Source of the DNA: an uncultured Acidimicrobiia bacterium | GTDB lineage: Bacteria; Actinomycetota; Acidimicrobiia; Spongiisociales; JAENVV01 | Direction of reading: 5' to 3' | NCBI GenBank assembly: GCA_963698385.1 | Contig: CAVOQP010000006.1 | Coordinates: 150,318 to 214,317 of the forward strand | Length of the DNA: 64,000 bases | In this document: in pieces, positions 30,385 to 64,000 of the stretch | Numbering within the stretch: the stretch's first letter is position 1 | Layout of the letters: each line of letters begins with the position of its first letter | Position numbers and translations under genes: made by a program | Notes under the pieces: model-generated | What the model was told of the DNA's origin: nothing | The model's input: the letters and a program-made list of their open reading frames with translations, nothing else | The model's database searches: none

Positions 30385-30430
30385 GGGTGGCTCCTGGGGG
30401 TGGCTGACCTGCTGAAGATACACTCCCCGG

Positions 30431-30866: not shown

Positions 30867-31855
30867 CTACCAGCTGGCGATCGTGCGGATGTAGTTGGCG
30901 CGTTCGTAGGCGGCAGGGTCCGGCGAGTTCTTCTGCGAGAGGCTGCCCCGGGCCTGGTCGATCGAGACGTAGTCCCGCTCGTCAAACCAGTCGGTGACCC
31001 CCGTGAGGACCGTTGCCAGGTACTCGGGTCCGTGGAGGAGGAGCGCCGATGCCATTCCAACCGCGTCGGCCCCCGCCAGGAGAAGCTTCACGGCTCCCGC
31101 GGCGTCGTGCACACCGGTTGATGCGCAGAGCGAACCGGGGACCCGGCCGTGAAGGATCGCCATCCACCGCAGGACGTGGCGCATCTCGGCCGGGTCCGAG
31201 AGAACCAGGTTCGGCTCCACCCGCATCGTGCCGAGGTTGATGTCGGGCTGGTAGAAGCGGTTGAAGAGCACCAGGCCGTCGGCGCCAGCTTCGAAGACTC
31301 GTCGAGCCATGTCGGGGAGCGAGGAGAATGCCGGCCCCAGCTTGACCGCGAGCGGGATCTCGATCTCGGACCGCAGACCGTCGATGAGAGCGATGTACCG
31401 GGTCTCCAACTCCGTCGAGGTCGTCTCCGGGTCAGCAGCGACGAAGTAGATGTTGAGCTCGATCGCGTCGGCACCGGCGTCTTGTAGTTGGTGGGCGAAC
31501 CGCACCCAGCCGCCTTCGGTGTACCCGTTGATGGACGGGATGATCGGCATCGACACCGCCTCCTTCGCCTCCGCCAGGTGCCGGAGGTACTCGTCCGGCC
31601 CGGTGTTGTAATCATCCATCTCGGGGAAGTACCCGGTGGCGGCCTCTGCGAAGACCCCTGCCCCGAGTTCCAGCCCGTGGTGGATCGACATCGCGTCATG
31701 CTCGATCTGCTCCTCGAACAACGACGGGAGCACCGCCGCCCCGGCCCCGGCTTGTTCGAGCTTGCGCAGGCCACTGACCGTGCCGGTGACCGGTGAGGCC
31801 GTGGCGATGATCGGGCTCGAGAGTGAGAGCCCGAGGTAGCTCGTTGTTGTATCGA

Positions 31856-31859
<4 letters not shown>
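30867..31859 (-). CDS. dihydroorotate-dehydrogenase-like (DHOD family) protein of the type co-encoded with pyruvate:ferredoxin oxidoreductase
   Basis: TIM-barrel PyrD-like sequence (LSLSSPIIATASPVTGTVSGLRKL...INGYTE...ELNIY...VKLGP...). Start overlaps the PFOR stop (translational coupling). Confidence 0.6.
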
Positions 31860-35425
<3,566 letters not shown>

Positions 35426-50255: not shown

Positions 50256-51487
50256 AGGATCACCGTCGTTTCGGTCTCTATCCCATACCGGATTCGTGGG
50301 TCGAGCGCGGCGTGGAGGACGTCAATGACGATCCGAGCCCCGATCGAGATCATGCCGATGAAGAGGAGGCCGCCCATCACCAGGGGGAAGTCCCGTGCCT
50401 CGAGAGCGCGGAAGAGGACGATCGACAACCCAGGGAAGTAGAGGCTGGCGCCGTAGTGGGAGGGAACCGTGAACGCGAACTCCACGATGACGAGGCCGGT
50501 CAGGACGAACGGAAGGGAGACCACGAATTTCGAGAGGGCCGGGAGCAACGCCACTCGGGCGGCATGGTGGTCGCGGACGTCGCGCTCCCGGAGGCCCTTG
50601 GCGCGGGCCGCCAGGATGTACTGCTCACCGCGCACGCCGTCCATCGCGGACTCGACCACGAGCGCGATCTCCCCAAACGCCAGGATCGCGACGGCCAGCA
50701 TCGGGAGGGACAGCAGCGCCAGTATGTCGAGAGCCTTGGCTTGGTGGCCGAGCAAGGACCAGAACCAGAGGTTCCCCCCCGCCCACAGGCCGAGCAGCAC
50801 GAAGCCGGGGAGTCGACGCCGCAGCAGGCGGCGGTAGCCCCAGCCGATCCCCATGGAGAGGACCCCGATGACGACGATCCCGAGGATCATCGCCCACAGG
50901 AGTCCTTCTTGTCCTTCCGGGACGCTGATCGCGGTCCGACCGAGTCGGAACCCGCCGGGGTCGACATCCTCCACCCGCTGGAGTGCGGCCCAGGCCTGGT
51001 CGGAGAACGCCCATCCGAACATCACGGCGAGCACGAAGGTGAGGATCGGGGGGAACGCGGTGTGGGCGGTGACGGCGGCGAAACGGACGACGCCTTTGAC
51101 GACGCGACTGCGACTCCAGCCGATCAACCTGCCGAGCCAGTGGCCGAAGAGGAAGGCCAGGGTGATGGAGAGCGTGAAGATCAGCATCGTCCAGGGAAGG
51201 AGCATCATCATGATCTCGATGATCGGCTGCCCCGTGTTCGAGATCCCGAACTCCCCCTTGAGGAAGCTGGTCATGAACCGAAGCCACTGCCCCCACAGCG
51301 AACGATCGAGGCCCAGTTGCTCGCGGAGGACCTCACGTTGGGCGCCGAGTCCGGGCATGAAGTTGTTCGTGAAGTCGCCCGGCATGAGCGCGCTCGCCAG
51401 GAAGAACACGAAGGTTGCGAAGACGATGAGTGTGATCGCGGACGAGATCACCCGTCTGACGAGGAAGCGGCGCACGGCCCGGAGCAT
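50252..51487 (-). CDS. peptide/nickel-type ABC transporter permease (DppB/OppB-like)
   Basis: MLRAVRRFLVRRVISSAITLIVFATFVFFL is the typical DppB N-terminus. Overlaps dppC-like start. Confidence 0.7.
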   Translation of the reverse strand: MLRAVRRFLVRRVISSAITLIVFATFVFFLASALMPGDFTNNFMPGLGAQREVLREQLGLDRSLWGQWLRFMTSFLKGEFGISNTGQPIIEIMMMLLPWTMLIFTLSITLAFLFGHWLGRLIGWSRSRVVKGVVRFAAVTAHTAFPPILTFVLAVMFGWAFSDQAWAALQRVEDVDPGGFRLGRTAISVPEGQEGLLWAMILGIVVIGVLSMGIGWGYRRLLRRRLPGFVLLGLWAGGNLWFWSLLGHQAKALDILALLSLPMLAVAILAFGEIALVVESAMDGVRGEQYILAARAKGLRERDVRDHHAARVALLPALSKFVVSLPFVLTGLVIVEFAFTVPSHYGASLYFPGLSIVLFRALEARDFPLVMGGLLFIGMISIGARIVIDVLHAALDPRIRYGIETETTVIL

Positions 51488-51537
51488 AGGTTGGAAGCTC
51501 GGGCCTGTCCGGACAGCCTCCAGCTACCGTCTCCCCG

Positions 51538-52719
51538 ATGGGAATGCTCGAAGGTATCCGGGTGCTCGATTTCGGCCGCTTCATCGCCGGCCCGTTCTGT
51601 GCCACGCTGCTGGGCGACCTGGGCGCGGAGGTGATCCGGGTGGAGAAGGTCGACGGTGGTGAGGACCGGTTCCTCTCACCGGTGGCGGACGACGGGACCG
51701 GGGCCACCCACCTCAACCTGGGCCGGAACAAGAAGGGGATGACCCTCAACCCCCGGCGGCCGGCCGGGGCCGAGATCCTCGGCCGTCTCGTCACCACCGC
51801 CGACGTGGTGGTGGCCAACCTTCCCCGCAGGGGTCTCGAGGCTATGGGAGTCGACTACCCGAGCCTCACCGCCATCCGCCCGGACATCATCCTCACCAGC
51901 GTCGATGCCTATGGCGACGAGGGGCCGTATGCCGATCGGGTCGGCTTCGACGGGGTTGGCCAGGCAATGGCAGCCAACGCCTGGCTCTCCGGACCCGAGG
52001 GATCCCCAACGCGCTCCTACACCCCGTATGTCGACTTCGGTACCGCCAGCCTGGCCGCCTACGCGACCATGGCTGCCCTCTGGCATCGGGAGCGGACCGG
52101 GGAGGGCCAGCACGTCCAGGCGGCGCTCCTCCGGACGGCGCTCCAGTTCAACTCGTTCACGATGACCGAGCAGGCCGTAAGGGACAAGAACCGGGTCTCC
52201 ACCTGGAACCGGGGCCAGACCTCGGGACCAACTGACATCTTCAGGGCCCAGGACGGGTTCTTGGTCGTGCAAGTGGTCGGTGCCCCGCTGTTCGGCCGCA
52301 TCGCCCGGCTCATGGGCCGGGCTGACTGGATCGACGACCCGCGTTTCCGTTCCGACGACGGCCGCGGCGAGCACAGCCTCGAGTTGTCGGAGGTGATCGG
52401 GGCCTGGGTGGCAGAACGAACGGTGGAGCAGGCGATCCGCGACTTCAACGAGGCAGGGGTGCCCTCGGCGCCCGTGCTCGATGCCCAGGGCGTCCTCGAC
52501 GACCCGCATGTGGTCGCAACGTCGATGTTCGTCGACCTGCCCTACCCGGGTGCGTCCTCGGTTCCCCCGATCGCCGGCCTCCCAGTGCAGTTGTCCAGGA
52601 CCCCGACCGAACTGCGCCATCGGGCACCGCAGTTGGGGGAGCACACCGACGAGATCCTCGCCGAACTCGGGTACGCCCCCGAGGAGATCACCGGCTTTCG
52701 GCGCAACCGCGTCGTGTGA
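51538..52719 (+). CDS. family III CoA-transferase (CaiB/BaiF-like)
   Basis: LEGIRVLDFGRFIAGPFCATLLGDLGAEVIRVE. Catalytic Asp region VDFGTASLA. 393 aa. Confidence 0.8.
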   Translation: MGMLEGIRVLDFGRFIAGPFCATLLGDLGAEVIRVEKVDGGEDRFLSPVADDGTGATHLNLGRNKKGMTLNPRRPAGAEILGRLVTTADVVVANLPRRGLEAMGVDYPSLTAIRPDIILTSVDAYGDEGPYADRVGFDGVGQAMAANAWLSGPEGSPTRSYTPYVDFGTASLAAYATMAALWHRERTGEGQHVQAALLRTALQFNSFTMTEQAVRDKNRVSTWNRGQTSGPTDIFRAQDGFLVVQVVGAPLFGRIARLMGRADWIDDPRFRSDDGRGEHSLELSEVIGAWVAERTVEQAIRDFNEAGVPSAPVLDAQGVLDDPHVVATSMFVDLPYPGASSVPPIAGLPVQLSRTPTELRHRAPQLGEHTDEILAELGYAPEEITGFRRNRVV

Positions 52720-52751: not shown

Positions 52752-53507
52752 TCAGGGGCGGCCGGGGGTGGGTCGCTGGGAGAAACGGACGGCAGCGGCC
52801 TGGACCTCTCGACCGAGGGCTGCTTCCCGACCCGGTTCGGGGAAGCGATAGCTCGGACCGTGCACGTGAATCGCGCCGAGCACCTGCCCACCGAGATCGA
52901 AGACAGCCGACGCGACCGACGTGATCCCCTCGGCGTACTCCTCCTCGATCCAGAAGAACCCCTGGGCCCGGATGGCCTCGAGTCGATCCCGGATCGTCGA
53001 CGGATCGGTGACGGTGCGCGGCGTGAAGGACTCGAGATCGCGTGACAGGTATCGGTCGATCTCGGCCGCTGGCCAGTTGGCCATGATGCACAGCCCGGAC
53101 GGGCCGACGTGCATCGGCACCCGGAGGCCGCTGTAGTCGCGGACCTGCACCGCGTTCGGCCCTTCGGCCTGCACCAGATAGTGCGTCGAGTACCCGACCG
53201 GTACCGAGAAGCCAGCGGTCTCGCCGAGGTGTTCGGCGAGGTGGGCCAGGTGGGGGCGAACCGCCATGATGAGCGAGTCGGACGCGTCGACGGAACCAGC
53301 CAGCTCGCCGATGGACTTCCCGATCCGGTAGTCGGAGGAGTCGTCGGCTCGTTCGACCGCCCCAACCTGTTCGAGTGTGGAGAGCATGCGGGCCACCGTG
53401 GACTTGGGCAGTGCGACCCGGGAGGCGATCTCCGAGACCCCGGCAGGTCCGACCGCCAGGCTCTGGAGGATCGAGAAGGCTCTCTCTATCGATTGGATGG
53501 ACGACAT
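52752..53507 (-). CDS. IclR family transcriptional regulator
   Basis: N-terminal HTH (IERAFSILQSLAVGPAGVSEIASRVALPKSTVARMLSTLE) plus C-terminal IclR effector domain. Confidence 0.8.
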   Translation of the reverse strand: MSSIQSIERAFSILQSLAVGPAGVSEIASRVALPKSTVARMLSTLEQVGAVERADDSSDYRIGKSIGELAGSVDASDSLIMAVRPHLAHLAEHLGETAGFSVPVGYSTHYLVQAEGPNAVQVRDYSGLRVPMHVGPSGLCIMANWPAAEIDRYLSRDLESFTPRTVTDPSTIRDRLEAIRAQGFFWIEEEYAEGITSVASAVFDLGGQVLGAIHVHGPSYRFPEPGREAALGREVQAAAVRFSQRPTPGRP

Positions 53508-53516: not shown

Positions 53517-54356
53517 TCACTGCCCCGAGTCGGGGCCGTGGGTGGCGTCCCTCAGCGCAGCCTCGAACCACGCGACCGTGTCCTCGACTTGGTTGAAGGT
53601 GAAGATGTGAAGCCCGCGAATCCCGAGCGTGGGATCGAGGCCGGCGATGTCGTCGAGGAGGTCGTCGGGAGTGAACAGGCCGGGACGAATCATCCTGGCG
53701 ATCACGCGTCGGTTCTTCGTGAGGTAGCGGAGGGAGGCACCGACCCCGATCCGGGCTCCGATTGCCATCAGCTTGAGGGTGTCGGAGGCCCCGGGCACCC
53801 CGACCATGACCGGGAGGTCGATCCCGGCTGCTCGGATGTCCCGGATCCACTGCTCGATCGGGCCGGCGTCGAGGCACATCTGGGTGGTCACGTGTCCCGC
53901 CAGGGGCGACTTGTCTGAGAGGGCCGTCATCAGGGCGTCCGGTTGGATGAACGGGTGTCCTTCCGGGTACCCGGCGATGCCGATCTCGGCGAAGGGGTGG
54001 GACATCGTGGCCAGTGCGGAGAGCAGCGCCCCGGCGTCGGGGAATTCCCCGTGGTCGGTCGCATCACCGCCGACGACGAAGGCCCGAGTGATCCCGGCCG
54101 ATCCGAGGCGATCCACGATCGAGGCGAGGTCGCCCGTCGATGGGATCATCCTTGCCGCGAGGTGGGCCACCACGTCGTAGCCGTGCGATGCCAGGTGCGC
54201 GCACAACTCGACGGTCGCTTCCATCCCCTTGGTCGGTGACGCCGTCACCGAGACCGTCGCCCCGGTTGGGAGTCCCAGCGCCCGCTCGGCGGTGGACTTC
54301 ATGGGGATCACCTCGAAGATCGAGTGGTCCAGGAGGTCGAGGAGTCGCTCGTTCAT
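53517..54356 (-). CDS. metF: methylenetetrahydrofolate reductase (MetF-like, short type)
   Basis: 279 aa TIM-barrel with MetF-like blocks (FEVIPMKS...VVAHLAAR...AFVVGGD...IGIAGYPEGHP...MVGVPGA). Lies at the distal end of the methyltransferase operon. Confidence 0.65.
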   Translation of the reverse strand: MNERLLDLLDHSIFEVIPMKSTAERALGLPTGATVSVTASPTKGMEATVELCAHLASHGYDVVAHLAARMIPSTGDLASIVDRLGSAGITRAFVVGGDATDHGEFPDAGALLSALATMSHPFAEIGIAGYPEGHPFIQPDALMTALSDKSPLAGHVTTQMCLDAGPIEQWIRDIRAAGIDLPVMVGVPGASDTLKLMAIGARIGVGASLRYLTKNRRVIARMIRPGLFTPDDLLDDIAGLDPTLGIRGLHIFTFNQVEDTVAWFEAALRDATHGPDSGQ

Positions 54357-54359
54357 GGG

Positions 54360-55886
54360 TCAGAGGTCCGAGTCCGGGTAGGACGCTCGGCGGACATCGA
54401 TCCACTCGCGGAGCTCGGCGTCCTTCGCCTCGTCGAACGCGGGGAGCACGTACTCGGCGAGCATCTCCTTCCACCGTTTGTTGGCCATCATCTCGGCATC
54501 CGGTGCGCCCTCCGATTCCCACTGCTCGAAGCTGTTGTTGTCGGACAGGCCCGACGTCCAGAACGCTGTTTCGAAGTTGGCGAGGGTGTGTGGGGAGCCG
54601 AGATAGTGCTGCCCGGGATCGTTCTCGAGCATGGCATCGAGGGCAAGCCCGTTCTCACTGAGGTCGATGCCCCCCATGAGCTTGCCGGCCATTCCTGACC
54701 TGTCGGCATCGAGTACGAACTTCTCGTACCCCATGGTCAGGCCGCCTTCGAGCCACCCCGCAGCGTGGAGGACGAAGTTGGTGCCGGCTTGCATCGTGGA
54801 CATGAACGAGACGGCGCTCTCGTACGCAGCCTGGTAGTCGGACGTCTTGGATGATGTGAGGTTGCCGCCGCTCCGGAACGGGACCCCGAGTCGGCGGGCG
54901 AGTGCTGCAACCGTGTAGAGCACCATGCTGGGTTCGGGTGTCCCGAATGTCGGGGCGCCCGACTGCATGGACATCGACGAGGCGAACGAGCCGAAGATCA
55001 CCGGGGATCCCGGCCGGACGATCTGGCAGAACGCCATTCCGGCCAGCGCTTCGGCGAGGGTCTGGGTTGCGGCCGCAGCCGGGGTCACCGGCGACATCGC
55101 CCCGGTGAGGATGAAGGGGGTGATGAGGCTGGCCTGGTTGTTCTCGGCGTAGACCTTCGCCGAACCGAGCATGCTGAAGTCCCACGACATCGGCGAGTTG
55201 GCGTTGATCAGGCTTGTCAGCACCGTGTTCTGGTCGACGAATTCCTCGCCGAACACGATCCTGGCCATGTCGACGGAGTCCTGGGCACGACTCGGGTGGG
55301 TCACCGATCCCATGAACGGTTTGTCGGAATACGTGATGTGGCTGTAGAGCATCTCGAAGTGCCGCTTGTTGACAGGGAGGTCCACGGGCTCGCACAGCGT
55401 GCCGCCCGAGTGGTGCATGGCGGGGGCGAGGTAGGCCAGTTTCACGAAATTCCGGAAGTCCTCGATGGTCGCGTAGCGCCTCCCACGGTCGAGGTCTCGC
55501 ACGAAGGGCGACCCGTAGGCCGGAGCGAAGACGAGGTGCGGGTCACCGATGCGGACCGACCGCGCAGGGTTCCGGGCGTGCTGGGTGAAGACGGCAGGTG
55601 CAGAGTCGGTGATGAGGCCCCGGCACAGGCCCCGGGGGAAGCGAACGCGCGTGCCGCGCACGTCTGCACCGGCCGAGGCGAAGATCTCGAGGGCTTCTGG
55701 ATAGCCACCGATCTCGACGCCGACGCTCTCGAGCAGGGTGTCGGCGTGCTGCTCGATGAGCGAGAGGCCCTCCTCGCTGATCACCTCGAGGGGTGCCAGC
55801 GTCCTGGTGAGGAAGGGGATGGTGTCGATGGACCGGGCGGTCCGTTCGGCCTGGCGGGCTGCGCGCCCACGTCGTGCGTCGCTCAT
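54360..55886 (-). CDS. MttB-superfamily (trimethylamine methyltransferase family, non-pyrrolysine) quaternary amine:corrinoid methyltransferase, substrate unknown (glycine betaine plausible)
   Basis: 508 aa, collinear with MttB/MtgB proteins (FVDQNTVLTSLINANSPMSWDFSMLGSAKVYAENNQASLITPFILTGAMSPVTPAAA). No in-frame UAG. Confidence 0.8.
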   Translation of the reverse strand: MSDARRGRAARQAERTARSIDTIPFLTRTLAPLEVISEEGLSLIEQHADTLLESVGVEIGGYPEALEIFASAGADVRGTRVRFPRGLCRGLITDSAPAVFTQHARNPARSVRIGDPHLVFAPAYGSPFVRDLDRGRRYATIEDFRNFVKLAYLAPAMHHSGGTLCEPVDLPVNKRHFEMLYSHITYSDKPFMGSVTHPSRAQDSVDMARIVFGEEFVDQNTVLTSLINANSPMSWDFSMLGSAKVYAENNQASLITPFILTGAMSPVTPAAAATQTLAEALAGMAFCQIVRPGSPVIFGSFASSMSMQSGAPTFGTPEPSMVLYTVAALARRLGVPFRSGGNLTSSKTSDYQAAYESAVSFMSTMQAGTNFVLHAAGWLEGGLTMGYEKFVLDADRSGMAGKLMGGIDLSENGLALDAMLENDPGQHYLGSPHTLANFETAFWTSGLSDNNSFEQWESEGAPDAEMMANKRWKEMLAEYVLPAFDEAKDAELREWIDVRRASYPDSDL

Positions 55887-57865
55887 GTCGTCTCCTGGTC
55901 TGCCGTCCGTCGGCGGCGGTCGCGGGTTCGGGTGATGCGGGGGGCTGGGAGGGTGACCATCGCCCCAAGTCGTCGGTAGGGGTCCTTGGCGTGGGGGATC
56001 GACATGGCGGCGACGAAGTGCTCCTGGAACGCCGGCTCGGTCGCCGTCTCGATCTTTTCGATGGTGCGAGCCACGGACTCGACCTCGCGGCGGGACACGC
56101 CGGAAAGGAGAGCCATGAGGGCCCCGGTGCCGGCCGCGTTGCCCGCCGCCGAGACCCGCGTAGGGTCGATGTCGGGCACCAGGCCCAGCACCAGGGCGTG
56201 CATCGGGTCGATGTGGCTCCCGAAGGCACCGGCGAGTCGGATCGAGTCGACCTCTCTCACTCCCAAACGCTCCATCAGCAGGACGCAGCCGGCATGGAGG
56301 GCCGCCTTGGCGAGTTGAACTGCCCTGACGTCGTTCTGGGTCACCTCGACGATGGGGTCATCCCACAGCCGGTAGGAGAAGGTCCGCCCGTTACCGACGA
56401 CGCGTGCGGCAGCCGGGTCCTCGGCGATGACGCCGTCACTGGACAGGACCCCGGCCAGGTACATCTCTGCGACGGCCTCGATGATGCCGGAGCCACAGAT
56501 GCCGGTGACGCCCGTGGAATGCACCGAGTCAGCGAAACCGGGATCGTCCGACCACACTTCGGATCCGATCACCGTGAAGCGCGGCTCCTTGGTGTCGGGG
56601 TCGACCCGGACCCGCTCGATGGCCCCCGGGGTGGCTCGCTGCCCTGACGAGATGGCCGCCCCCTCGAACGCGGGGCCGGTGGGGGAGGAGGCTGCCATGA
56701 GTCGGTGACGGTTGCCGAGGATGATCTCGGCATTGGTGCCGATATCCACCAGCAACGTGACGGCCTCGCCGCGGTGGGGCCCCTCTGAGAGCGTCATGGC
56801 GGCAGCGTCGGCGCCCACATGCCCGGCGATGCACGGGAGTGCGTACACCGTGGCCCCGGGGTGCACCGAGAGGCCCAGTTCGGTTGCCCCGGTCTCCACG
56901 GCCTCGTCCGTGGCCAAGGCAAAGGGGGCGGTGCCCAGCGGAGTGGGATCGATCCCGAGGACGAGGTGGTGCATGATCGGGTTGCCGACGAACGTCAACT
57001 CGATGATGTCCTGCCGTGCGGTGTCGGCGTCGGTGCAGAGGTCGCCGATGAGGTCGTTCATTGCCTCCCGGACCCGGGCGGTGAGGATGGCCCGTCCCCC
57101 GGGGTTGAGCATCACGTAGGAGACCCGGCTCATGAGGTCCTCACCGAAGGCGATCTGGGGGTTCATGCGGCCGGCGGATGCCAGGATCGCACCCGAGGTG
57201 AGGTCGCAGAGGTGCCCGGCGAGGGTGGTGGATCCGACGTCGAACCCGACGCCGAGGATACGATCCCTGAAGCCCGGGAAGACCCCGACCAACGCTTTGT
57301 CGTGGCGAAGGGCGACAGTCACTGCCCACTGTCCGTCCCGGAGTGCGGATTGAACGGTGCCGAGCACCGAGGAGTGGACCGTCGCGACGGTGAGGCCCCA
57401 CTGGTCGACCAGGGCCGCCCGGAGCCGTTCCAGGTCACCGGATGGGGACGCCAAGTCGGGTTCCGGCACGGTGACGTAGTACAAGCGGACGACGGGGTCG
57501 ACAGCGATCGCATCGACATCGGCCCGCTTGCGGATGACCTGGCGATGGATCTGGCTTTCCGGCGGAACATCGATGACGACGTCCATCATCGCCTGGGCGG
57601 CGCAGCCAAGCCGGTGCCCCGCTCCCAGCGGGCGTCGCCCCCGGTAGTCGACCTCGATCGGTCCCGGCGCCGACAGGGAGGTGTGGTCCACCGGTACCCC
57701 GGACCGTGATCCAAGTGTCACTTGGCACCGGCCGCATATCCCGCGACCACCGCACACGGTGTCGAGGTCGACGCCCAACTCCCGGGCAGCGGCGAGCAGG
57801 TCGGTCCCGGTCGGGAACCTTCCCCGCCGGCCGGACGGGGCGAACGCGATCTCGACGGTCGACAC
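55883..57865 (-). CDS. corrinoid activation/regeneration protein (RamA/RACo-type reductive activase: N-terminal 2Fe-2S ferredoxin + ASKHA/DUF4445 ATPase)
   Basis: Ferredoxin motif CGGRGICGRCQV...C. Large ASKHA-like body with glycine-rich loops (GFDVGSTT, VDIGTNAEI, GICGSGIIEAV). Confidence 0.75.
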   Translation of the reverse strand: MSTVEIAFAPSGRRGRFPTGTDLLAAARELGVDLDTVCGGRGICGRCQVTLGSRSGVPVDHTSLSAPGPIEVDYRGRRPLGAGHRLGCAAQAMMDVVIDVPPESQIHRQVIRKRADVDAIAVDPVVRLYYVTVPEPDLASPSGDLERLRAALVDQWGLTVATVHSSVLGTVQSALRDGQWAVTVALRHDKALVGVFPGFRDRILGVGFDVGSTTLAGHLCDLTSGAILASAGRMNPQIAFGEDLMSRVSYVMLNPGGRAILTARVREAMNDLIGDLCTDADTARQDIIELTFVGNPIMHHLVLGIDPTPLGTAPFALATDEAVETGATELGLSVHPGATVYALPCIAGHVGADAAAMTLSEGPHRGEAVTLLVDIGTNAEIILGNRHRLMAASSPTGPAFEGAAISSGQRATPGAIERVRVDPDTKEPRFTVIGSEVWSDDPGFADSVHSTGVTGICGSGIIEAVAEMYLAGVLSSDGVIAEDPAAARVVGNGRTFSYRLWDDPIVEVTQNDVRAVQLAKAALHAGCVLLMERLGVREVDSIRLAGAFGSHIDPMHALVLGLVPDIDPTRVSAAGNAAGTGALMALLSGVSRREVESVARTIEKIETATEPAFQEHFVAAMSIPHAKDPYRRLGAMVTLPAPRITRTRDRRRRTADQETT

Positions 57866-57869
57866 GGAC

Positions 57870-58769
57870 TCAGCCCCGACGCCGGTTGCCCCGGCGAGCC
57901 CGGTGGGCGTCCCCCGCCCCGAGGTCGACGGCCCGATGGTGGCGGATCCACGTCTCGCAGTTGGGATCGTGCCCTGCGAGCACGTCGGCAGCCATGATCG
58001 ACCGCGTGATCTCGGTCTCCAGGGGATTGGTGATCGCGGAGGTCAATCCGGACGCGACCGCCATGGCGAGGAAGGCGGCGTTGATCCCCGGGCGATTCGG
58101 GAGCCCGAAACTGACGTTGGATGCTCCGCACGTCGTGTTGACCCGGAGTTCGTCACGGAGGCGACCGAGCAGATGGAAGACCTGTCGCCCGGCGGTTCCC
58201 ATGGCCCCGATGGGCATGACCAGGGGGTCGACAACGATGTCCTCCTTGGGGATGCCGTGGTCGGCGGCGCGATTGACGATCCTGCGGGCGACCTCGAACC
58301 GCACGTCAGGATCCTCGGAGATCCCGGTCTCGTCGTTGCTGATGGCGACGACTGCCGCTCCGTACTTCTTGATCAGCGGGAACACGGCCTCCATGCGGTC
58401 CTCCTCACCGGTGACTGAATTGACGAGTGCCTTGCCCTTGTACACGGCAAGGCCGGCTGCCAACGCCTCGACGATCGAGCTGTCGAGGGAGAGCGGCACA
58501 TCGACCAACCCTTGGACCAACAGTACGGTCTGGGCCAGGATCGTCGGCTCGTCGGCGAGTGGGATCCCGGCGTTCACGTCCAACATGCGGGCGCCGGCCT
58601 CGACCTGGGCGACGGCGTCGGTCTCCACCCGGCTGAAGTCGCCTTCCTTCATCTCGGCCGCGAGGAGCTTGCGGCCGGTGGGGTTGATGCGCTCCCCGAT
58701 GATGACGAAGGGGCGGTCGAAACCGATCACTACCTCCCGGGTGGGTGAGCTGACGTACGTGTCGGTCAT
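57870..58769 (-). CDS. pterin-binding methyltransferase (methylcobalamin:tetrahydrofolate methyltransferase, MtgA/MtrH/AcsE-like)
   Basis: ATG at 58769 with upstream ggag RBS. Dihydropteroate-synthase-like barrel (FVIIGERINPTGRKLLAAEMKEGDFS...MLDVNAG...ALVNSV...TCGASNVSFGLPNR). Confidence 0.65.
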   Translation of the reverse strand: MTDTYVSSPTREVVIGFDRPFVIIGERINPTGRKLLAAEMKEGDFSRVETDAVAQVEAGARMLDVNAGIPLADEPTILAQTVLLVQGLVDVPLSLDSSIVEALAAGLAVYKGKALVNSVTGEEDRMEAVFPLIKKYGAAVVAISNDETGISEDPDVRFEVARRIVNRAADHGIPKEDIVVDPLVMPIGAMGTAGRQVFHLLGRLRDELRVNTTCGASNVSFGLPNRPGINAAFLAMAVASGLTSAITNPLETEITRSIMAADVLAGHDPNCETWIRHHRAVDLGAGDAHRARRGNRRRG

Positions 58770-59095
58770 TGGTTCTCCGGGCCGTCGTGGCCGCCGGCCA
58801 TGGCCAATCGGCCGAGGGTATCCGGGGTGAACTCGAGTTCGAGGCGCGTCGCGGCCTCCTCGACGGCAGCCTCGAGGTCGATGGTGCATGGCGCCGTCGT
58901 CCGCCGCCATTCGCCGAGGTATTCGTCGGTGCCGAAGAGGCCGGCCTCCATGGCGGCCCGATCGATGGCAGCCTGGAAGCGGGGAGAAAGCTCGCGTCGC
59001 GCTGTCTCGCTTCCGGCCCGAGCGGTGACCTGGGCGGGGATGGCACGCCAGGAGATGACCGTGAGAGTGGGAGAAGCCCCCGAGCGTTCCCTCAT
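58766..59095 (-). CDS. small acidic protein (109 aa) of unknown function, translationally coupled between DUF1638 and the pterin methyltransferase
   Basis: ATGA overlaps at both ends. No recognisable motif. Confidence 0.3.
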   Translation of the reverse strand: MRERSGASPTLTVISWRAIPAQVTARAGSETARRELSPRFQAAIDRAAMEAGLFGTDEYLGEWRRTTAPCTIDLEAAVEEAATRLELEFTPDTLGRLAMAGGHDGPENQ

Positions 59096-59688
59096 GCCCG
59101 GAGCTCCGCCACCGCAGCTTCCAGGTCGCCGTAGCCGACGTGCCTGTGCCGGAACGCCAGGCCGAGCCTGTTGGCCGCTGCCTCGGCCCGCGAGACGAGT
59201 GTGGGATCGTCCACCTGGGAGAGGTAGACGAGTTGGCGGTAGTTGCCGAAGTAGGTGTCAAGGAGCTGGGGGTGGCGGTCGAGACCCAGCCCACTCCAGA
59301 CGAGGCGATCGAAGTGTCGAGCGAGGTAGTCGGTGAGATAGAAGGTGCGCGGCTCTTCGTCGTGCAACGACGCAAAGACGGAACCTCCACTGAAGAATTC
59401 GTAGCAGTGGGCGCCGGGGAGGCGTTCCACACCGTGCTTGGCGAGCACGGCGTCGAGTTGGCCCCCGGTCCCGCAGTCGGCGTAGCCGACGTAGATCGTG
59501 TCGTAGTCGTCCTTTGCCCGGACGATCCGTTCCTCGACTGCCGCGGGGATCCGATCCGGATGGTTGTGGTACGAGGCGGGAAGGCACTCGACCCGCAGTT
59601 GGGTGAGGTTGGTGCGGCGCACCACTTCGAGGAGCTCGCGGGCGATGGCGCCGCAGGCGATGATGAGGGTCCGGGGGTGCTCGGTCAA
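59092..59688 (-). CDS. DUF1638 domain protein (family recurrently encoded beside MttB-family/corrinoid methyltransferase genes)
   Basis: 198 aa, TTG start per track. TLIIACGAIARELLEVV...YVGYADCGTGGQLDAVL pattern matches the DUF1638 Cys-containing core. Confidence 0.5.
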   Translation of the reverse strand: MTEHPRTLIIACGAIARELLEVVRRTNLTQLRVECLPASYHNHPDRIPAAVEERIVRAKDDYDTIYVGYADCGTGGQLDAVLAKHGVERLPGAHCYEFFSGGSVFASLHDEEPRTFYLTDYLARHFDRLVWSGLGLDRHPQLLDTYFGNYRQLVYLSQVDDPTLVSRAEAAANRLGLAFRHRHVGYGDLEAAVAELRA

Positions 59689-59697
59689 CGCCTCACC

Positions 59698-60384
59698 TCA
59701 CATCGATCGCCTGGCCAGCACGAGGGCCTCTGCGGTCTGGGCGGCGACGGCCGCGTCGCGGCAGTAGGCGTCGGCGCCGACTGCCTTGCCGAACTCCTCG
59801 TTGAGTGGTGCACCCCCGACCAGCACGATGTACTGGTCGCGGAGGTTCCGGGCGATGAGGGTGTCGATCACCACCTTCATGTAGGGCATCGTCGTGGTGA
59901 GCAAGGCAGACATGCCGAGGATGTCCGGCTGGTGTTCCTCGAGGGCTGCGAGGAACTCCTCGGCATCGGTGTTGATGCCGAGGTCGATCACCTCGAAGCC
60001 GGCGCCTTCCAGCATCATCCCGACGAGGTTCTTGCCGATGTCGTGGATGTCGCCCTTGACGGTGCCCAGCACCACCTTGCCGATGGTGGATGCCCCGGTC
60101 TCGGCGAGGAGTGGGCGGAGGAGGCTCATGCCCGCCTTCATGGCGTTGGCCGAGAGCAGCACCTCGGGCACGAAGAGGATGCCGTCGCGGAAGTCGATGC
60201 CGACGATGCGCATCCCTTCGACGAGGGCCTCGCTGAGCACCCGTTGGGGATCCCAGCCCCGGCCGAGGAGGATCCGTGTTCCCTCGGCGATCTCATCGGC
60301 GAGGCCGTCGTAGAGGTCGTCGTGCATCTGGGGGACGAGGTCGTCGTCGGGGAGCGTGGAGAGGTCGAGGTTGTCGTCAGCCAT
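59698..60384 (-). CDS. cobalamin-binding corrinoid protein (MtgC/MtbC-like)
   Basis: B12-binding motif GTVKGDIHDIGKNLV (DxHxxG) with Rossmann-like domain and N-terminal helical cap. 228 aa. Confidence 0.8.
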   Translation of the reverse strand: MADDNLDLSTLPDDDLVPQMHDDLYDGLADEIAEGTRILLGRGWDPQRVLSEALVEGMRIVGIDFRDGILFVPEVLLSANAMKAGMSLLRPLLAETGASTIGKVVLGTVKGDIHDIGKNLVGMMLEGAGFEVIDLGINTDAEEFLAALEEHQPDILGMSALLTTTMPYMKVVIDTLIARNLRDQYIVLVGGAPLNEEFGKAVGADAYCRDAAVAAQTAEALVLARRSM

Positions 60385-60417
60385 GGCAGGCTCCTGGAGG
60401 GGTTGTCACGCACTGGC

Positions 60418-60434
60418 ATTCCACGATGTGGAAT
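60418..60434. promoter_or_regulatory. perfect palindrome attccac-gat-gtggaat ~35-50 bp upstream of the corrinoid-protein gene; candidate operator for the adjacent GntR regulator
   Basis: Direct reading: cattccacgatgtggaatcg, in the 185-bp leader of the methyltransferase operon. Confidence 0.35.
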
Positions 60435-60569
60435 CGTCTTGCGATATGGAACAAACGATAGCTCACGCCCCGCTCGTCGTCCATCAATCCCGCGGGGATT
60501 TCGCAATGGTGCGTCGCTCCGAGCGCGCCTCCTGACAGGAGGTGGACTCGTCCGATTCGGGGGTGGTCG

Positions 60570-61226
60570 TCAGATGATCGAGCGGACGGCGCGTTCAAAG
60601 CCGCGCACGTGCCGTCTCGCCACCGCGCGGGACCGGGTGGCATCACCGGCGAGCACTGCGTCGATGAGTTCCACGTGCTCCTCCACATGGCTGGAGATGT
60701 CGGGGAGGCGCTCGATGAAGAGGTGCCAGATCCGGAGCGCCAGGTTGTGGTACATCGTGGCGGTGGCCGTGAGGAACCGGTTGTGGGCGGCGGCATAGAT
60801 CGCCCGGTGGACCTCGGTGTCGACGCGGATCTGGGCGGCGATGGTCGTGGCCCGGAGCGTTGGGGTGAGGGCCTCGAGGGCCACCCGATCGGTATCGGTG
60901 GCTCGCCCGGCGGCCGATGCAGCGGCGTGCCCCTCCAACTCCTCGCGCAGGTCGGTGATCAGGGCGAGGTCGGCGATGTTGATGTCGGCTGCGAAGGTGC
61001 CCCGCCTCGGGTAGACCCTGACCAGTTGCTCACCCTCGAGGCGATGGACCGCCTCCCGCAAGGGTGTGCGGCCGACCCCGATCCGCTCCATGAGCTCGGC
61101 TTCCGGCAGCGGGGCGCCCGGCGGGATACCGAGCGTGATCAGCAGGTCCCGCAGCTCTTCGTAGGCCTCGTCGGCCCGGGAGACGTTTCCCCGTTGGAGT
61201 GCATGCACTGACATCCTGATCACCAA
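60570..61226 (-). CDS. GntR family transcriptional regulator (FadR-like C-terminal domain)
   Basis: wHTH (AYEELRDLLITLGIPPGAPLPEAELMERIGVGRTPLREAVHRLEGEQLVRV) plus all-helical FCD domain. Confidence 0.8.
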   Translation of the reverse strand: MVIRMSVHALQRGNVSRADEAYEELRDLLITLGIPPGAPLPEAELMERIGVGRTPLREAVHRLEGEQLVRVYPRRGTFAADINIADLALITDLREELEGHAAASAAGRATDTDRVALEALTPTLRATTIAAQIRVDTEVHRAIYAAAHNRFLTATATMYHNLALRIWHLFIERLPDISSHVEEHVELIDAVLAGDATRSRAVARRHVRGFERAVRSII

Positions 61227-61295
61227 TCATACACATCTGATATATTTCAAGCCACCACCCGTAGGGTGGGCAGTCCACGAGCGGAGGCATGACCC

Positions 61296-63821
61296 ATGAG
61301 CGAATTCCCGTCACAGGCCAGGGTGGTCATCATCGGGGCCGGGATCGTCGGCAACAGCCTGCTCGGACACCTGGCAGACCTCGGGTGGGATGACATGGTC
61401 CTCATCGACAAGGGCCCTCTCCCGAACCCCGGGGGGTCGACCGGCCACGCCTCGAACTTCATCTTCCCCACGGACCACAACAAGGAGATGGCCTTCCTCA
61501 CGGTCGAGAGCCAGCGCCAATACGAGGTCGCCGGGTTCAACACGGTGTGTGGCGGTATCGAGGTGGCTCGCACCCCCGAGCGCATGGAGGAGTTCCGTCG
61601 CCGGATGACCTCGGCCAAGTCGTACGGCATCGAATCCGAGCTGCTGACCCCCGCCGAGGTGAAGGAGTTGGTCCCATTCATCACCGAGGATGTGATCCTC
61701 GGGGGATTCCACACCCCGAGCGTCAGCGTCGTCGACTCGCTCGGCTATGGCACTTTCATGCGCGACCGGGCGAAGAACGCCGGCGCCGCCCAGGTGTTCG
61801 CCAACACCGAGGTGCTCGACCTCGAAACGGAACCCACCCCCTACGGACGACCCCGGGTCACGGCCGTGGTGACCGACCGCGGCCGAATCGAGGTGGAGCA
61901 TGTCGTGGTCGCGTGTGGCGTGTGGAGTCCCCGGATTGCGGCCATGGCCGGAGCAACGATCCCCCTCACGCCGGCCGTGCACCAGATGGCGGACGTCGGG
62001 CCGATCGATGTGCTGGCGGCCACCGGCAACGAGATCGGGTACCCGATCGTCAGGGACATGGACACATTCATGTACGAGCGTCAATCCGCCGGGTCGATGG
62101 AGGTCGGGTCGTACGCCCACCGCCCGATCTTCGTCCACCCGGATGAGATCCCCTCCAATGACGAAGCCGCACTCTCACCGACCGAGATGCCCTTCACCCC
62201 CGACGACTTCGACGACCAGATGGAGGATGCGCTGGAGCTCATGGGCGACATCCTCGAGACCGCCGAGATCCGATACGCCATCAACGGCCTGCTGTCGCTC
62301 ACACCCGATGCCATGCCGGTCCTGGGAGAGACGGTGGAGGTGGCGAACCTCTGGTCCGCTGCGGCCGTATGGATCAAGGAGGGCCCGGGGATCGCCCAGA
62401 TGATCGCCGAGTGGATGACCCACGGGTATCCACACATGTGTGACCCGCACGGCTCCGACATTGCCCGCCTCTACCCGCACGAACGCTCGGAGTCCCACAT
62501 CAATGCCCGATGCGCCGAGCACTTCAACAAGACGTACGGCATCGTCCATCCCCGTGAGCAATGGGCCAGTCGCCGTGGCCTCAAGCGATCGCCATTCCAC
62601 GCCCGCGAGGAGGCGCTCGGGGCCGCCTTCTACGACGCCCGGGGCTGGGAGCGGCCCCAGTGGTATGAGACCAACACCGACCTCGTTGAACGGTACGGGG
62701 TCGAGGATCGTCCCCACGAGTGGGACCGCCGCTGGTGGTCGCCGATCATCAACGCCGAACACCTCCACCTCCGAGAGAAGGTGGGCATGGTCGACCTCAC
62801 CGCCTTCCAGGTCTTCGAAGTCACCGGGCCCGGGGTGGTCGACTACATGCAGAAGATGACGGTCAACAGCGTGGAGGTGGCCGTGGGCCGGTCCGTCTAC
62901 ACACCGGTACTCACCGAACATGGCGGATTCAGATCGGACCTCACGGTGCTGCGTCTCGGAGCCGACCGGTATCGGATCGTCACCGGAGCCTTCGACGGCG
63001 GGCGGGACGAGTACTGGTTCCGCCGCAACCTCCCTGGTGATGGTTCCGTGCAGTTCGAGAACCGAACGTCGAGCCTCACGACCATCGGCGTCTGGGGACC
63101 CGACGCCCGTCGGGTGGTCGAAGTCGCCGCCGAAGGCGACGTCTCCGAGGAGGCAATCCCCTACGGGTCGGTCAGGGACGTGCTGATCGCCGGCGTCCCT
63201 TGCACACTCTTCCGCATCTCCTACGTCGGTGACCTCGGGTTCGAGATCTACACCGCGATGGAGTACGGCCTCGGCGTGTGGGACGCCCTGGCGGAGGCGG
63301 GCCGCGCCTTCGACATCCGGCCGGTGGGGATCGGCGTATATGGCACCACGGGTCGGCTCGAGAAGGGGTACCGCCTCATGGGTGCCGAGCTCGAGTCCGA
63401 ATACACGCCGGTCGAGGCCGGACTCGCCCGACCCCGAGTGAAGGCGGCGGACTTCATCGGCAAGGAGGCGTACCTGGCAGCCCGCGAAGAGGACCCGGTG
63501 GCGATCCTGTGCACGTTGACCATGGACTCCCACGAGGATGCGTCCGGGGTGAGGCGGTATCCGACTGGGGGAAACGAGCCGATCCTCACTCTCGACGGAG
63601 ACCGGATCGTCGATGCGAAAGGCCGTGTCTCCAGGGTCACCTCCGCCGGTGCCGGGCCGTCCCTCGGGGCGTACCTGTTGTTGGCCTACCTGCCTCCCGA
63701 CCACGCCGTGGAGGGTGCGAAGCTGCAGGTCATGTACATGAACGAGTGTTTCCCGGTGACGGTTGCCCGGGTCGGGAGCGAGCCCCTGTTCGACCCGGAC
63801 GACAGTCGGATGAAGTCCTGA
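61296..63821 (+). CDS. dimethylglycine/sarcosine dehydrogenase family enzyme (FAD-dependent oxidoreductase fused to GcvT-like tetrahydrofolate-binding aminomethyltransferase domain)
   Basis: N-terminal FAD fold VVIIGAGIVGNSLLGHLADLGW. C-terminal GcvT-like domains (MVDLTAFQVFEVTGPG...YVGDLGFEIY). 841 aa. Confidence 0.8.
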   Translation: MSEFPSQARVVIIGAGIVGNSLLGHLADLGWDDMVLIDKGPLPNPGGSTGHASNFIFPTDHNKEMAFLTVESQRQYEVAGFNTVCGGIEVARTPERMEEFRRRMTSAKSYGIESELLTPAEVKELVPFITEDVILGGFHTPSVSVVDSLGYGTFMRDRAKNAGAAQVFANTEVLDLETEPTPYGRPRVTAVVTDRGRIEVEHVVVACGVWSPRIAAMAGATIPLTPAVHQMADVGPIDVLAATGNEIGYPIVRDMDTFMYERQSAGSMEVGSYAHRPIFVHPDEIPSNDEAALSPTEMPFTPDDFDDQMEDALELMGDILETAEIRYAINGLLSLTPDAMPVLGETVEVANLWSAAAVWIKEGPGIAQMIAEWMTHGYPHMCDPHGSDIARLYPHERSESHINARCAEHFNKTYGIVHPREQWASRRGLKRSPFHAREEALGAAFYDARGWERPQWYETNTDLVERYGVEDRPHEWDRRWWSPIINAEHLHLREKVGMVDLTAFQVFEVTGPGVVDYMQKMTVNSVEVAVGRSVYTPVLTEHGGFRSDLTVLRLGADRYRIVTGAFDGGRDEYWFRRNLPGDGSVQFENRTSSLTTIGVWGPDARRVVEVAAEGDVSEEAIPYGSVRDVLIAGVPCTLFRISYVGDLGFEIYTAMEYGLGVWDALAEAGRAFDIRPVGIGVYGTTGRLEKGYRLMGAELESEYTPVEAGLARPRVKAADFIGKEAYLAAREEDPVAILCTLTMDSHEDASGVRRYPTGGNEPILTLDGDRIVDAKGRVSRVTSAGAGPSLGAYLLLAYLPPDHAVEGAKLQVMYMNECFPVTVARVGSEPLFDPDDSRMKS

Positions 63822-63824
63822 GAT

Positions 63825-64000
63825 GAGGGTCCTCGTCTGTATCAAGCGGGTTCCGGCGTCCGGTGCCCGCATCAACGTCACAGAGGACGGCATGGCGGTG
63901 GACACCTCCCATCTCGGCTTCACCATGAGTCCCCACGAGGAGTGTGCGGTGGAGGAGGCGGTTCGCATCGTCGAACGGGAAGGCGGCAGCGCCACCGTGC
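63825..64000 (+). CDS. etfB: electron transfer flavoprotein beta subunit, N-terminal fragment (3' end outside window)
   Basis: MRVLVCIKRVPASGARINVTEDGMAVDTSHLGFTMSPHEECAVEEAVRIVE matches the conserved EtfB N-terminus. Starts 4 nt after the dehydrogenase stop. Confidence 0.6.

Follow-up and report, generated by a model that had tools for sequence, protein, structure and literature searches.

The window analysed here, a stretch of DNA of 64,000 nucleotides, contains between position 52,752 and its end the genes and the candidate regulatory site listed in Table 1. Domains were assigned by profile searches against Pfam and NCBIfam. All the genes that had been named in a sequence-only reading of this DNA were found at the place which that reading had given for them.

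Table 1. Genes and other features of the locus (positions are those of the window).
Feature	Position	Strand	Basis
IclR-family transcriptional regulator	52752..53507	-	PF09339 + PF01614
MetF-like protein, divergent single-subunit MTHFR-like (MetF2-like)	53517..54356	-	PF02219, only 40 bits
Non-pyrrolysine MttB-superfamily methyltransferase, MtgB-like	54360..55886	-	PF06253, 711 bits
RACo/RamA-like ATP-dependent reductive activase	55883..57865	-	PF17650 + PF17651 + PF14574
Pterin-binding methyl-corrinoid:THF methyltransferase, MtgD-like	57870..58769	-	PF00809; NF005719
109-aa PF13769 'Virulence_fact' protein	58766..59095	-	PF13769, 59 bits
DUF1638 protein	59092..59688	-	PF07796, 104 bits
Corrinoid (cobalamin-binding) protein, putative aerobic MtgC type	59698..60384	-	PF02310 + PF02607 (B12-binding + cap domain)
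Perfect palindrome, candidate IclR operator, 5' of corrinoid gene	60418..60434	.	ATTCCAC-GAT-GTGGAAT
GntR/FCD-family regulator	60570..61214	-	PF00392 + PF07729
841-aa dimethylglycine oxidase/dehydrogenase-family flavoenzyme	61296..63821	+	PF01266 + PF16350 + PF01571 + PF08669
etfB 5' end, cut by window end	63823..64000	+	identity to ETF-beta N-termini

The earlier reading described nine co-oriented genes, most of them overlapping by ATGA. The co-orientation was confirmed, the ninth gene being that of the IclR regulator, just outside the coordinates considered at that time; ATGA overlaps, however, occur at only three of the eight junctions (DUF1638/PF13769, PF13769/pterin methyltransferase and RACo/MttB). 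Four junctions are gaps of 3–9 nt, and between the GntR and corrinoid genes lie 185 bp which include hairpins. As had also been claimed, the dimethylglycine-dehydrogenase-like gene and etfB are divergent, both lying on the plus strand. Identical proteins occur on a 1.34-Mb NCBI/ENA contig, and our gene calls agree with the public annotation. The taxonomic placement relies on the nearest relatives, Acidimicrobiia MAGs. A recent horizontal acquisition was considered and set aside, as base composition gives no sign of it (GC is uniform, 0.64–0.69, across the window). An Rfam scan of the whole window at gathering thresholds gave no match, and hence no cobalamin riboswitch.

The gene order of the module repeats in about 40–54 of 80 genome loci, which belong to Actinomycetota, Chloroflexota, Acidobacteriota and Pseudomonadota. 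As the same order recurs in that many loci of several phyla, the clustering is not due to chance. Two further candidates for module parts, a neighbouring family III CoA-transferase and a pair of ABC permeases, were rejected, each being conserved with the module in none of the 80 loci. These data on domain identities, gene order and orthology, like those on residue conservation given below, are direct observations. The gene cluster is real and intact, and is predicted to serve the B12-dependent demethylation of a betaine, most likely glycine betaine.

The MttB homologue matches PF06253 with 710.6 bits (cut-off 25) over residues 5–503 of 508, and belongs therefore to the superfamily. When compared with PDB sequences, it aligned along its full length with Desulfitobacterium hafniense MtgB (387 bits) and only in its C-terminal half with Methanosarcina barkeri MttB (95 bits). 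Its open reading frame is uninterrupted, without any in-frame stop; the residue equivalent to Pyl334 is Leu343, encoded by CTC, and the score against the equivalog model TIGR02369 is 235 bits, below the cut-off of 525. That the enzyme is of the non-pyrrolysine type, as the sequence-only reading held, is well borne out by these results. The best PDB match, with 666 bits, is 4YYC, annotated as 'putative trimethylamine methyltransferase', which we take to be the protein of the Sinorhizobium meliloti cluster; literature searches on 4YYC returned nothing relevant in the collection searched.

In the crystallographic site of D. hafniense MtgB, R312 and H348 bind the carboxylate of glycine betaine and the aromatic pair Y97/F356 binds the trimethylammonium group (PMC13080624). 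Picking et al. considered this four-residue motif the likely minimum for glycine betaine use. Three of the four residues are retained here: Y97, R312 and H348 correspond to Y124, R338 and H374, and are invariant in 125 members of the clade. F356 aligns, within an ungapped stretch, with G382, which is glycine throughout the clade, so that only one half of the aromatic pair is preserved. W378, four residues before G382, is also invariant in the clade and may act in place of F356 as the cation-pi partner. The assignment of glycine betaine as substrate is hence upheld by Y124, R338 and H374 and weakened by the loss of F356; because the pocket is only three-quarters conserved with respect to MtgB, we infer the substrate rather than read it from the site.

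The same machinery might instead act on another methylated onium compound for which the MttB homologue would be specific (proline betaine, carnitine, gamma-butyrobetaine, a choline derivative or some other acidic quaternary amine), the flavoenzyme then acting on its demethylated product. The replacement of F356 by glycine together with a clade-specific tryptophan agrees with this, and so does the presence in aerobes of as many as seven PF06253 paralogues, presumed to have different substrates. MtcB, MtpB, MthB and MtyB share R312 and, in part, H348, so that these residues do not discriminate between both alternatives. Y97, however, is kept as well, and according to Picking et al. enzymes of the other specificities do not conserve the aromatic pair; the best solved relatives of the flavoenzyme are dimethylglycine-specific. 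The family III CoA-transferase next door could be taken as a further hint of a different substrate, but as stated above it does not travel with the module. Moreover, the orthologous clusters of cultured bacteria sit by betaine-related genes; that of S. meliloti further contains bmt/mtgE together with a glycine betaine/proline ABC ATPase, and a Paracoccus plasmid cluster adjoins a carnitine 3-dehydrogenase gene. On balance we regard a substrate other than glycine betaine as unlikely.

The corrinoid protein carries, as read in its translation, a DIHDIG (DxHxxG) motif. Two MtgC models are its top NCBIfam matches, both below cut-off (206 against 370), and it is 74–78% identical to proteins of alphaproteobacterial clusters. 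The pterin-binding methyltransferase scores 362 bits against NF005719, above the cut-off of 259, and is 63–64% identical to the products of the S. meliloti and Paracoccus cluster genes; its start codon, ATG at 58769, overlaps the upstream stop codon as ATGA. The activase matches the RACo linker, middle and C-terminal ASKHA domains with 80, 157 and 280 bits, respectively, and an N-terminal CGGRGICGRC...C motif (C-x4-C-x2-C...C), of the [2Fe-2S] type, is visible in its translation. Since its NCBIfam scores against AcsV (348 bits) and RamA (106 bits) are below both specific cut-offs, the activase is by sequence a member of the RACo/RamA family and not an equivalog of either protein.

It can also be considered that the corrinoid protein, the pterin methyltransferase, the activase and DUF1638 mainly form a split methionine synthase core, as in Phaeobacter inhibens, betaine demethylation being secondary or absent. 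The 78% identity of the corrinoid protein to that of S. meliloti, which is encoded near bmt/mtgE, would fit such a role. Nevertheless, neither a PF02574 homocysteine-binding (MtgE) module nor MetH is present in the 64-kb window. In addition, MttB and MetF genes belong to the operon, and opposite to it stands the gene of a dimethylglycine-type dehydrogenase, an arrangement that argues for catabolism. We consider a core devoted mainly to methionine synthesis improbable; a dual role, in methionine synthesis and in betaine demethylation, is compatible with the glycine betaine pathway that we favour. That the MttB homologue could be a true trimethylamine methyltransferase and the cluster demethylate trimethylamine is suggested by the family name and by automatic annotations ('trimethylamine--corrinoid protein Co-methyltransferase'), but is already refuted by the sequence, considering the absence of an in-frame UAG, the CTC codon at the Pyl334 site, the scores against TIGR02369 and M. 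barkeri MttB given above, and the fact that the window showed no pyl genes.

Two small proteins are encoded between the corrinoid protein and the pterin methyltransferase. DUF1638 has been implicated genetically by fitness data from P. inhibens (PMC5764234) and, by analogy, would assist the activase in reactivating B12. Of the 80 related loci, 44 contain the PF13769 gene, as does the S. meliloti cluster. The AF2 model of its product has a pLDDT of 86, and a search for solved fold relatives of this model found none; from its context the protein is predicted to be a conserved accessory. A bolder proposal, about which we are rather doubtful, is that DUF1638 and the PF13769 protein might constitute a cofactor-maintenance pair that keeps the corrinoid methyltransferase working under oxygen and that, alongside, the pocket of the W378/G382 MttB clade, and possibly its substrate range, might differ from those of MtgB.

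The best solved relative of the MetF-like protein is the methyl-THF-oxidising S6MTHFR (7XG9; 107 bits, residues 15–264), and homologues with 39–51% identity are encoded at the same position in 39 loci. Type-4 MTHFR motifs have been located in loop beta2-alpha3, helix alpha8 and loop beta8-alpha11 (PMC11868366). The protein studied here keeps two of the seven type-4 residues (P49 and F269), the equivalents of L48, R78, F215, C219 and P268 being S, M, I, I and T; the complete type-4 motif is therefore not present, a point against the pathway proposed below. As for the gene order, the arrangement resembles that of S6MTHFR in Sphingobium lignivorans: in both cases the MTHFR gene lies directly downstream of that of a THF-dependent demethylase. 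The difference is that only P49 and F269 of the highlighted residues are kept here. By analogy, we propose that the MetF-like protein oxidises 5-methyl-THF to 5,10-methylene-THF.

The divergent flavoenzyme shows the complete domain architecture of its family (DAO + FAO_M + GCV_T + GCV_T_C), of which the GcvT domain binds THF. Along their whole length, dimethylglycine oxidase (DMGO) of Arthrobacter globiformis (1PJ5, 454 bits) and mammalian dimethylglycine dehydrogenase (DMGDH; 4PAA, 260 bits, and 5L46) share these four domains with it, which discards its being an unrelated FAD oxidase and agrees with the previous assignment. H51 aligns with H48 of DMGO, the histidine to which FAD is covalently bound. 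Sequence does not distinguish dimethylglycine from sarcosine specificity in this enzyme. The divergent arrangement is kept in loci L017, L018, L028 and L032; a DMGO/DMGDH-family gene together with etfBA adjoins the module in four loci from Acidimicrobiia and Chloroflexota, and in another actinobacterial lineage a paralogous gene of the family is co-oriented upstream of the module. Although only 59 codons of etfB lie inside the window, this fragment shares 58–71% identity with the N-terminal ends of its counterparts in 10 loci. The counterpart in L017 is a PF01012 gene followed by etfA with PF00766. As the flavoenzyme gene is followed by etfB (in relatives also by etfA), a feature in which the locus differs from DMGO and DMGDH, the gene order suggests that the electron acceptor is ETF rather than O2. 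Against this link counts that the closest solved relative is an oxidase and not an ETF-linked dehydrogenase.

With respect to regulation, the sequence-only reading had noted the GntR protein upstream of the genes. Homologues of it were found in 0 of the 80 related loci, and the GntR/FCD regulator is thus specific to the source lineage; the regulator accompanying the module is instead the IclR protein, orthologues of which (45–60% identity) adjoin it in about 25 loci. Of 47 module loci, 22 have the sequence TTCC[AG]C-N3-G[TC]GGAA in the 300 bp that precede the corrinoid gene, the background rate being 0.017 per 310 bp, and its occurrence goes along with that of an IclR orthologue. Judging from sequence conservation, the IclR protein is the probable cognate regulator of the module, and the palindrome TTCCAC-N3-GTGGAA (ATTCCACGATGTGGAAT) a candidate for its operator.

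We consider it reasonably likely that the locus represents the aerobic cobalamin-dependent MtgBCD pathway of glycine betaine catabolism in an actinobacterium, probably a member of the Acidimicrobiia. The route put forward in the sequence-only reading, from a betaine to Co(I), THF and MetF and then through the dehydrogenase to ETF, fits every test that was run; we infer from homology each of its catalytic steps, and likewise its regulation. The TIM barrel of the MttB-family protein would bind glycine betaine, R338 and H374 holding the carboxylate and Y124, probably with W378, the trimethylammonium group. The corrinoid Co(I) would then abstract one methyl group, leaving dimethylglycine, and the pterin-binding methyltransferase would hand this methyl to tetrahydrofolate. 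Oxidation of 5-methyl-THF to 5,10-methylene-THF by the MetF-like protein would make the C1 unit available for oxidation or assimilation. Cofactor that has become oxidised to Co(II) would be reduced again by the [2Fe-2S]/ASKHA activase at the expense of ATP, and DUF1638 and the PF13769 protein would be putative accessories to this step. The divergent flavoenzyme would oxidatively demethylate dimethylglycine, or possibly sarcosine, capturing the C1 unit on THF and passing electrons to ETF and from there to the respiratory chain. The IclR protein, acting at the TTCCAC-N3-GTGGAA palindrome, is the probable regulator of expression.

As a probable copy of a known pathway in an actinobacterium, the locus is not a surprise. 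It carries aerobic B12-dependent glycine betaine demethylation beyond marine Proteobacteria, into Actinomycetota and, by synteny, also into Gaiellales/Thermoleophilia, soil Chloroflexota and Acidobacteriota. By implication, the route is widespread, together with its cobalamin demand, in soil and host-associated aerobes, in which MttB-family genes should therefore not be used as markers of trimethylamine use or of anaerobiosis. The analysis also provides a compact nine-gene operon fit for reconstitution, a candidate IclR operator and a conserved accessory gene (PF13769) left out of the published models.

Among the systems already characterized, that of D. hafniense (MtgB/MtgC/MtgA; 2QNE, 9YCE; PMC13080624) shares with the locus a non-Pyl TIM barrel of the MttB superfamily, the conserved Y97, R312 and H348, the leucine at the Pyl position and the chemistry from corrinoid to THF. 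It differs in that F356 is a glycine here, with an invariant tryptophan four residues before, in that the corrinoid protein falls below the NCBIfam MtgC cut-offs, and in that the host is here an aerobe with Ni-SOD. The description of the corrinoid system as 'anaerobe-style' is outdated: Mausz et al. (PNAS 2025, PMC12478193) have reported this system from aerobes, and it has been shown genetically in aerobic Ruegeria pomeroyi and P. inhibens (PMC12478193, PMC5764234). For the same gene set, R. pomeroyi has provided aerobic genetics and proteomics, in which the knockouts were confined to mtgC and mtgD, while for the MtgB paralogues induction alone was observed (PMC12478193). Mausz et al. also assign the S. 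meliloti cluster to aerobic MtgBCD glycine betaine demethylation (PMC12478193), and 5% of marine mtgC reads had already been assigned to Actinomycetota (cited with PMC12478193 and PMC5764234). Literature searches for an explicit description of the operon in an actinobacterium returned nothing relevant in the collection searched.

The six components of the aerobic MtgBCD system of R. pomeroyi, P. inhibens and S. meliloti (MtgB, MtgC, MtgD, a MetF paralogue, the ferredoxin-DUF4445 activase and DUF1638) are all present here, and in a single operon. Identities to the proteins of the S. meliloti cluster are 61% for MttB, 78% for MtgC, 64% for MtgD, 56% for the activase, 47% for DUF1638 and 46% for PF13769. 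Genes for dimethylglycine demethylation lie near the module both in marine Proteobacteria and at this locus; no gene for a betaine transporter, for sarcosine oxidase or for the conversion of choline or carnitine to betaine was found in the 64-kb window, which counts against the glycine betaine reading. The proteobacterial clusters carry a MetV/MetF pair, in contrast to the short single-subunit MetF-like protein (279 aa) found here, and mtgE is not nearby in the present case. The published model does not discuss the PF13769 gene, which is present here. The locus differs further from the aerobic systems in its putative regulation by an IclR protein at a palindromic operator, in the tight operon that gathers all components and in its host, a member of the Actinomycetota.

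Profile searches of the region with Pfam and NCBIfam located every gene listed in the sequence-only reading of this window, and several of the exact window proteins are on record for the contig in NCBI/ENA, so that the gene calls agree with public annotation. Together these genes form a genuine cluster that is complete and coherent. The count of nine co-oriented genes stands, but the ninth is an IclR regulator gene that lies just beyond the stretch 53517-64000 to which the set had been assigned. The description of these genes as mostly overlapping by ATGA was too strong: such overlaps occur at three junctions, and gaps of 3–9 nt at four. A 185-bp stretch containing hairpins separates the GntR gene from the operon; a GC-rich one follows immediately after the stop codon of GntR. 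The most likely function, as read from the sequence, would be cobalamin-dependent methyl transfer from glycine betaine to THF, followed by ETF-linked oxidation of dimethylglycine. That the cluster encodes a corrinoid system transferring methyl groups from methylated amines in general to THF is very probable; glycine betaine as the specific substrate is a fairly probable assignment.

Features of the window, with the number of related loci (of 80) carrying a homologue
Feature	Position	Strand	Profile or remark	Loci
Two-subunit 2-oxoacid:ferredoxin oxidoreductase	22810-25685			
Ni-superoxide dismutase (Ni-SOD)	29968-30792		listed ORF probably over-extended at N-terminus	
1189-aa PFOR-type enzyme	30867-35425		beside DHODH-like gene	
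Opp/Dpp-type permeases, CoA-transferase	49254-52719			
IclR regulator	52752-53507	-		
Divergent MTHFR-like (MetF-like) protein	53517-54356	-	PF02219, only 40 bits	39
MttB-superfamily protein	54360-55886	-	PF06253, 711 bits	
RACo-type activase	55883-57865	-	linker, middle, ASKHA domains	53
Pterin-binding methyltransferase	57870-58769	-	NF005719, 362 bits (cut-off 259)	47
109-aa protein	58766-59095	-	PF13769 'Virulence_fact'	44
DUF1638 protein	59092-59688	-	PF07796	40
Corrinoid protein	59698-60384	-	cap and B12-binding domains, DIHDIG motif	47
Palindrome ATTCCAC-GAT-GTGGAAT	60418-60434		perfect	
GC-rich hairpin	60520-60550			
GntR/FCD regulator	60570-61214	-	PF00392, PF07729	
Inverted repeat CCACCC-GTA-GGGTGG	61255-61269			
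841-aa flavoenzyme	61296-63821	+	DAO, FAO_M, GcvT, GcvT_C	
etfB, first 59 codons	63823-64000	+	58-71% identity to ETF-beta genes (then etfA) in related loci	

Species-representative genomes were scanned with the window MttB, yielding 80 loci of 63–74% identity, against which all window proteins were then searched by tblastn. The order of the window (corrinoid protein, DUF1638, PF13769, pterin methyltransferase, activase, MttB, MetF) is also found in Acidimicrobiia, Gaiellales/Thermoleophilia, other Actinomycetota, Chloroflexota (Limnocylindria) and two Acidobacteriota; in Pseudomonadota the module genes are present in rearranged order. The window shares its divergent flavoenzyme and etfB with three Acidimicrobiia genomes, among them Candidatus Spongiisocius, and with a single Chloroflexota locus (L017, L018, L028 and L032), etfA following etfB at L017. 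Besides the window, IclR follows MetF only at the Acidimicrobiia loci L010, L014 and L016. As the MttB and PF13769 proteins likewise have their closest named relatives in Acidimicrobiia MAGs, assigning the module to a high-GC actinobacterial background was reasonable; GC content is even throughout the window. At two Acidimicrobiia loci, L017 (12867-14681) and L018 (12241-14190), the place taken by IclR in the window is occupied by a fused aminodeoxychorismate synthase/lyase gene (PabB-PabC, folate precursor pABA).

The MttB homologue is of the non-pyrrolysine type: its ORF has no internal stop, and a CTC codon (Leu343) aligns with Pyl334 of M. barkeri MttB. It scored 666 bits against 4YYC, an entry titled 'putative trimethylamine methyltransferase', 387 bits against D. 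hafniense MtgB and 95 bits against M. barkeri MttB. We take 4YYC to be the MttB protein of the S. meliloti cluster. The glycine betaine site of MtgB has been defined by mutagenesis and a ligand-bound structure, with cation-pi contacts from Y97 and F356 and the carboxylate held by R312 and H348 (Picking et al., PMC13080624). Conservation of the substrate pocket, on which the earlier reading had made its assignment depend, is partial: in an ungapped alignment to MtgB, Y124, R338 and H374 are kept, but the position of F356 is taken by G382. The three kept residues are invariant among 125 aligned sequences, as are G382 and W378 across the clade; D. hafniense MtgB lacks W378. On this alignment the clade would keep three of the four MtgB contacts, and the second aromatic contact may be supplied from a different position, that of W378. 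Since one of the four pocket-defining residues is missing, glycine betaine is a substrate that we infer.

Leu occupies the Pyl-equivalent position in 54 of the 55 module-embedded MttB genes, as well as in MtgB and 4YYC, whereas Phe is found there in 14 of the 25 stand-alone loci versus one of the 55. The loci L001-L009, L011-L013, L015 and L038 (MttB at about 10001-11512) have Phe and no module within 10 kb. This residue is a second marker telling orthologues from paralogues. The stand-alone Chloroflexota genes are slightly nearer to the window MttB overall (71–74% identity); as they carry Phe for Leu, they probably represent a paralogous specificity.

The divergent dimethylglycine-dehydrogenase-like gene and etfB were also confirmed, etfB by its counterparts in related loci and the flavoenzyme by a full-length match to Arthrobacter dimethylglycine oxidase (454 bits; 260 bits against mammalian dimethylglycine dehydrogenase). 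The flavoenzyme keeps a histidine at the position of the covalent-FAD His48. The presence of etfBA alongside favours ETF over O2 as electron acceptor; dimethylglycine and sarcosine specificity are indistinguishable. L024 and its relatives, from another actinobacterial lineage, have a paralogous family member (35–38% identical to the flavoenzyme) immediately before the corrinoid gene and in the same orientation; here the two functions are associated independently. At L024 ('uncultured Actinomycetes' lineage; 829-5894 and 6620-9901), aldehyde dehydrogenase, pirin and DMGDH-family genes precede the corrinoid gene in the same orientation; the DMGDH-family gene is in two ORFs, possibly by frameshift or assembly error, and a single 1093-aa ORF covers pterin methyltransferase and activase.

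The sole good solved relative of the MetF-like protein is S6MTHFR of Sphingobium lignivorans (107 bits), which oxidises methyl-THF produced by THF-dependent demethylases (PMC11868366) and thus supports by analogy the oxidative direction proposed. The protein is not classed here with the 'type 4' MTHFRs, just two of the seven residues highlighted for that group being kept.

With respect to regulation, we searched 300 bp upstream of the corrinoid gene for TTCC[AG]C-N3-G[TC]GGAA, allowing at most two mismatches. The motif is present in 22 of 47 module loci (background 0.017 per 310 bp). Conservation of the palindrome extends over loci from Actinomycetota, Chloroflexota and Acidobacteriota, with perfect TTCCAC-N3-GTGGAA copies also at L022 (4995-5009), L044 (4818-4832), L046 (5967-5981), L056 (4908-4922) and L058 (4546-4560); it is a candidate IclR operator. 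As the motif co-occurs with an IclR orthologue (at least 45% identity) adjoining the module, and GntR homologues are absent from all 80 loci by tblastn, we propose the IclR protein as the cognate regulator. GntR would be a lineage-specific addition that perhaps acts on the divergent dehydrogenase/etf unit. The dehydrogenase start codon lies 27 bp downstream of an inverted repeat. No riboswitch was found.

The PF13769 protein has about 200 stand-alone homologues, each of about 100 aa; its predicted model is confident (pLDDT 86), and no solved fold relative was found. The remaining genes of the window are of a housekeeping kind: Mfd, ABC transporters, GH57 and alpha-amylase, MetRS, a PAS-GGDEF-EAL protein, a 2-oxoacid dehydrogenase E1/E2 set and the Ni-SOD, 2-oxoacid:ferredoxin oxidoreductase and PFOR-type genes. 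Absent from the 64 kb are a homocysteine-binding module, MetH, a betaine transporter, a sarcosine oxidase and any gene for cobalamin synthesis. Bordering the module are a family III CoA-transferase and two Opp/Dpp-type ABC permeases, the latter without adjoining binding protein or ATPase; they are conserved with it in none of the 80 loci. Three oxygen-related gene sets (2-oxoacid:ferredoxin oxidoreductase, Ni-SOD and PFOR-type enzyme) share the window. The coexistence of a corrinoid system with Ni-SOD had been considered ecologically informative; it is instead expected, the pathway being documented in aerobes.

In aerobic Phaeobacter inhibens, fitness genetics showed that the corrinoid protein, pterin methyltransferase, ferredoxin-DUF4445 (RamA-like) and DUF1638 proteins are required for B12-dependent methionine synthesis (Price et al. 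2018, PMC5764234). Aerobic Ruegeria pomeroyi growing on glycine betaine induces two PF06253 proteins, a metF paralogue (MetF2), a RamA-like protein and DUF1638; in other bacteria the same genes are often clustered with later demethylation steps, and Actinomycetota account for 5% of the marine mtgC reads (Mausz et al. 2025, PMC12478193). The genome tables of that study include no actinobacterial genome, and no paper describing the actinobacterial operon was found in the literature searched. New, if modest, points are the single short MetF, the candidate IclR operator and the previously unmentioned PF13769 accessory.

Comparison with annotated S. meliloti and Paracoccus records supports orthology. 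Identities of the S. meliloti cluster to the window are 61% for MttB, 78% for the cobalamin-binding protein, 47% for DUF1638, 46% for the 'virulence factor' PF13769, 64% for the pterin methyltransferase and 56% for the ASKHA protein; it lies about 10 kb or less from bmt (mtgE of Mausz et al.) and a glycine betaine/proline ABC ATPase. On Paracoccus methylovorus plasmid p1 (L081, 363792-389240), a complete proteobacterial module adjoins carnitine 3-dehydrogenase, a GlxA-family regulator and an IS630 transposase, an arrangement suggesting that the module is able to move between replicons. In architecture, the actinobacterial/Chloroflexota version stands apart most clearly by its MetF: S. meliloti and other proteobacterial clusters carry a MetV/MetF pair, whereas the window has a single short MetF-like gene.
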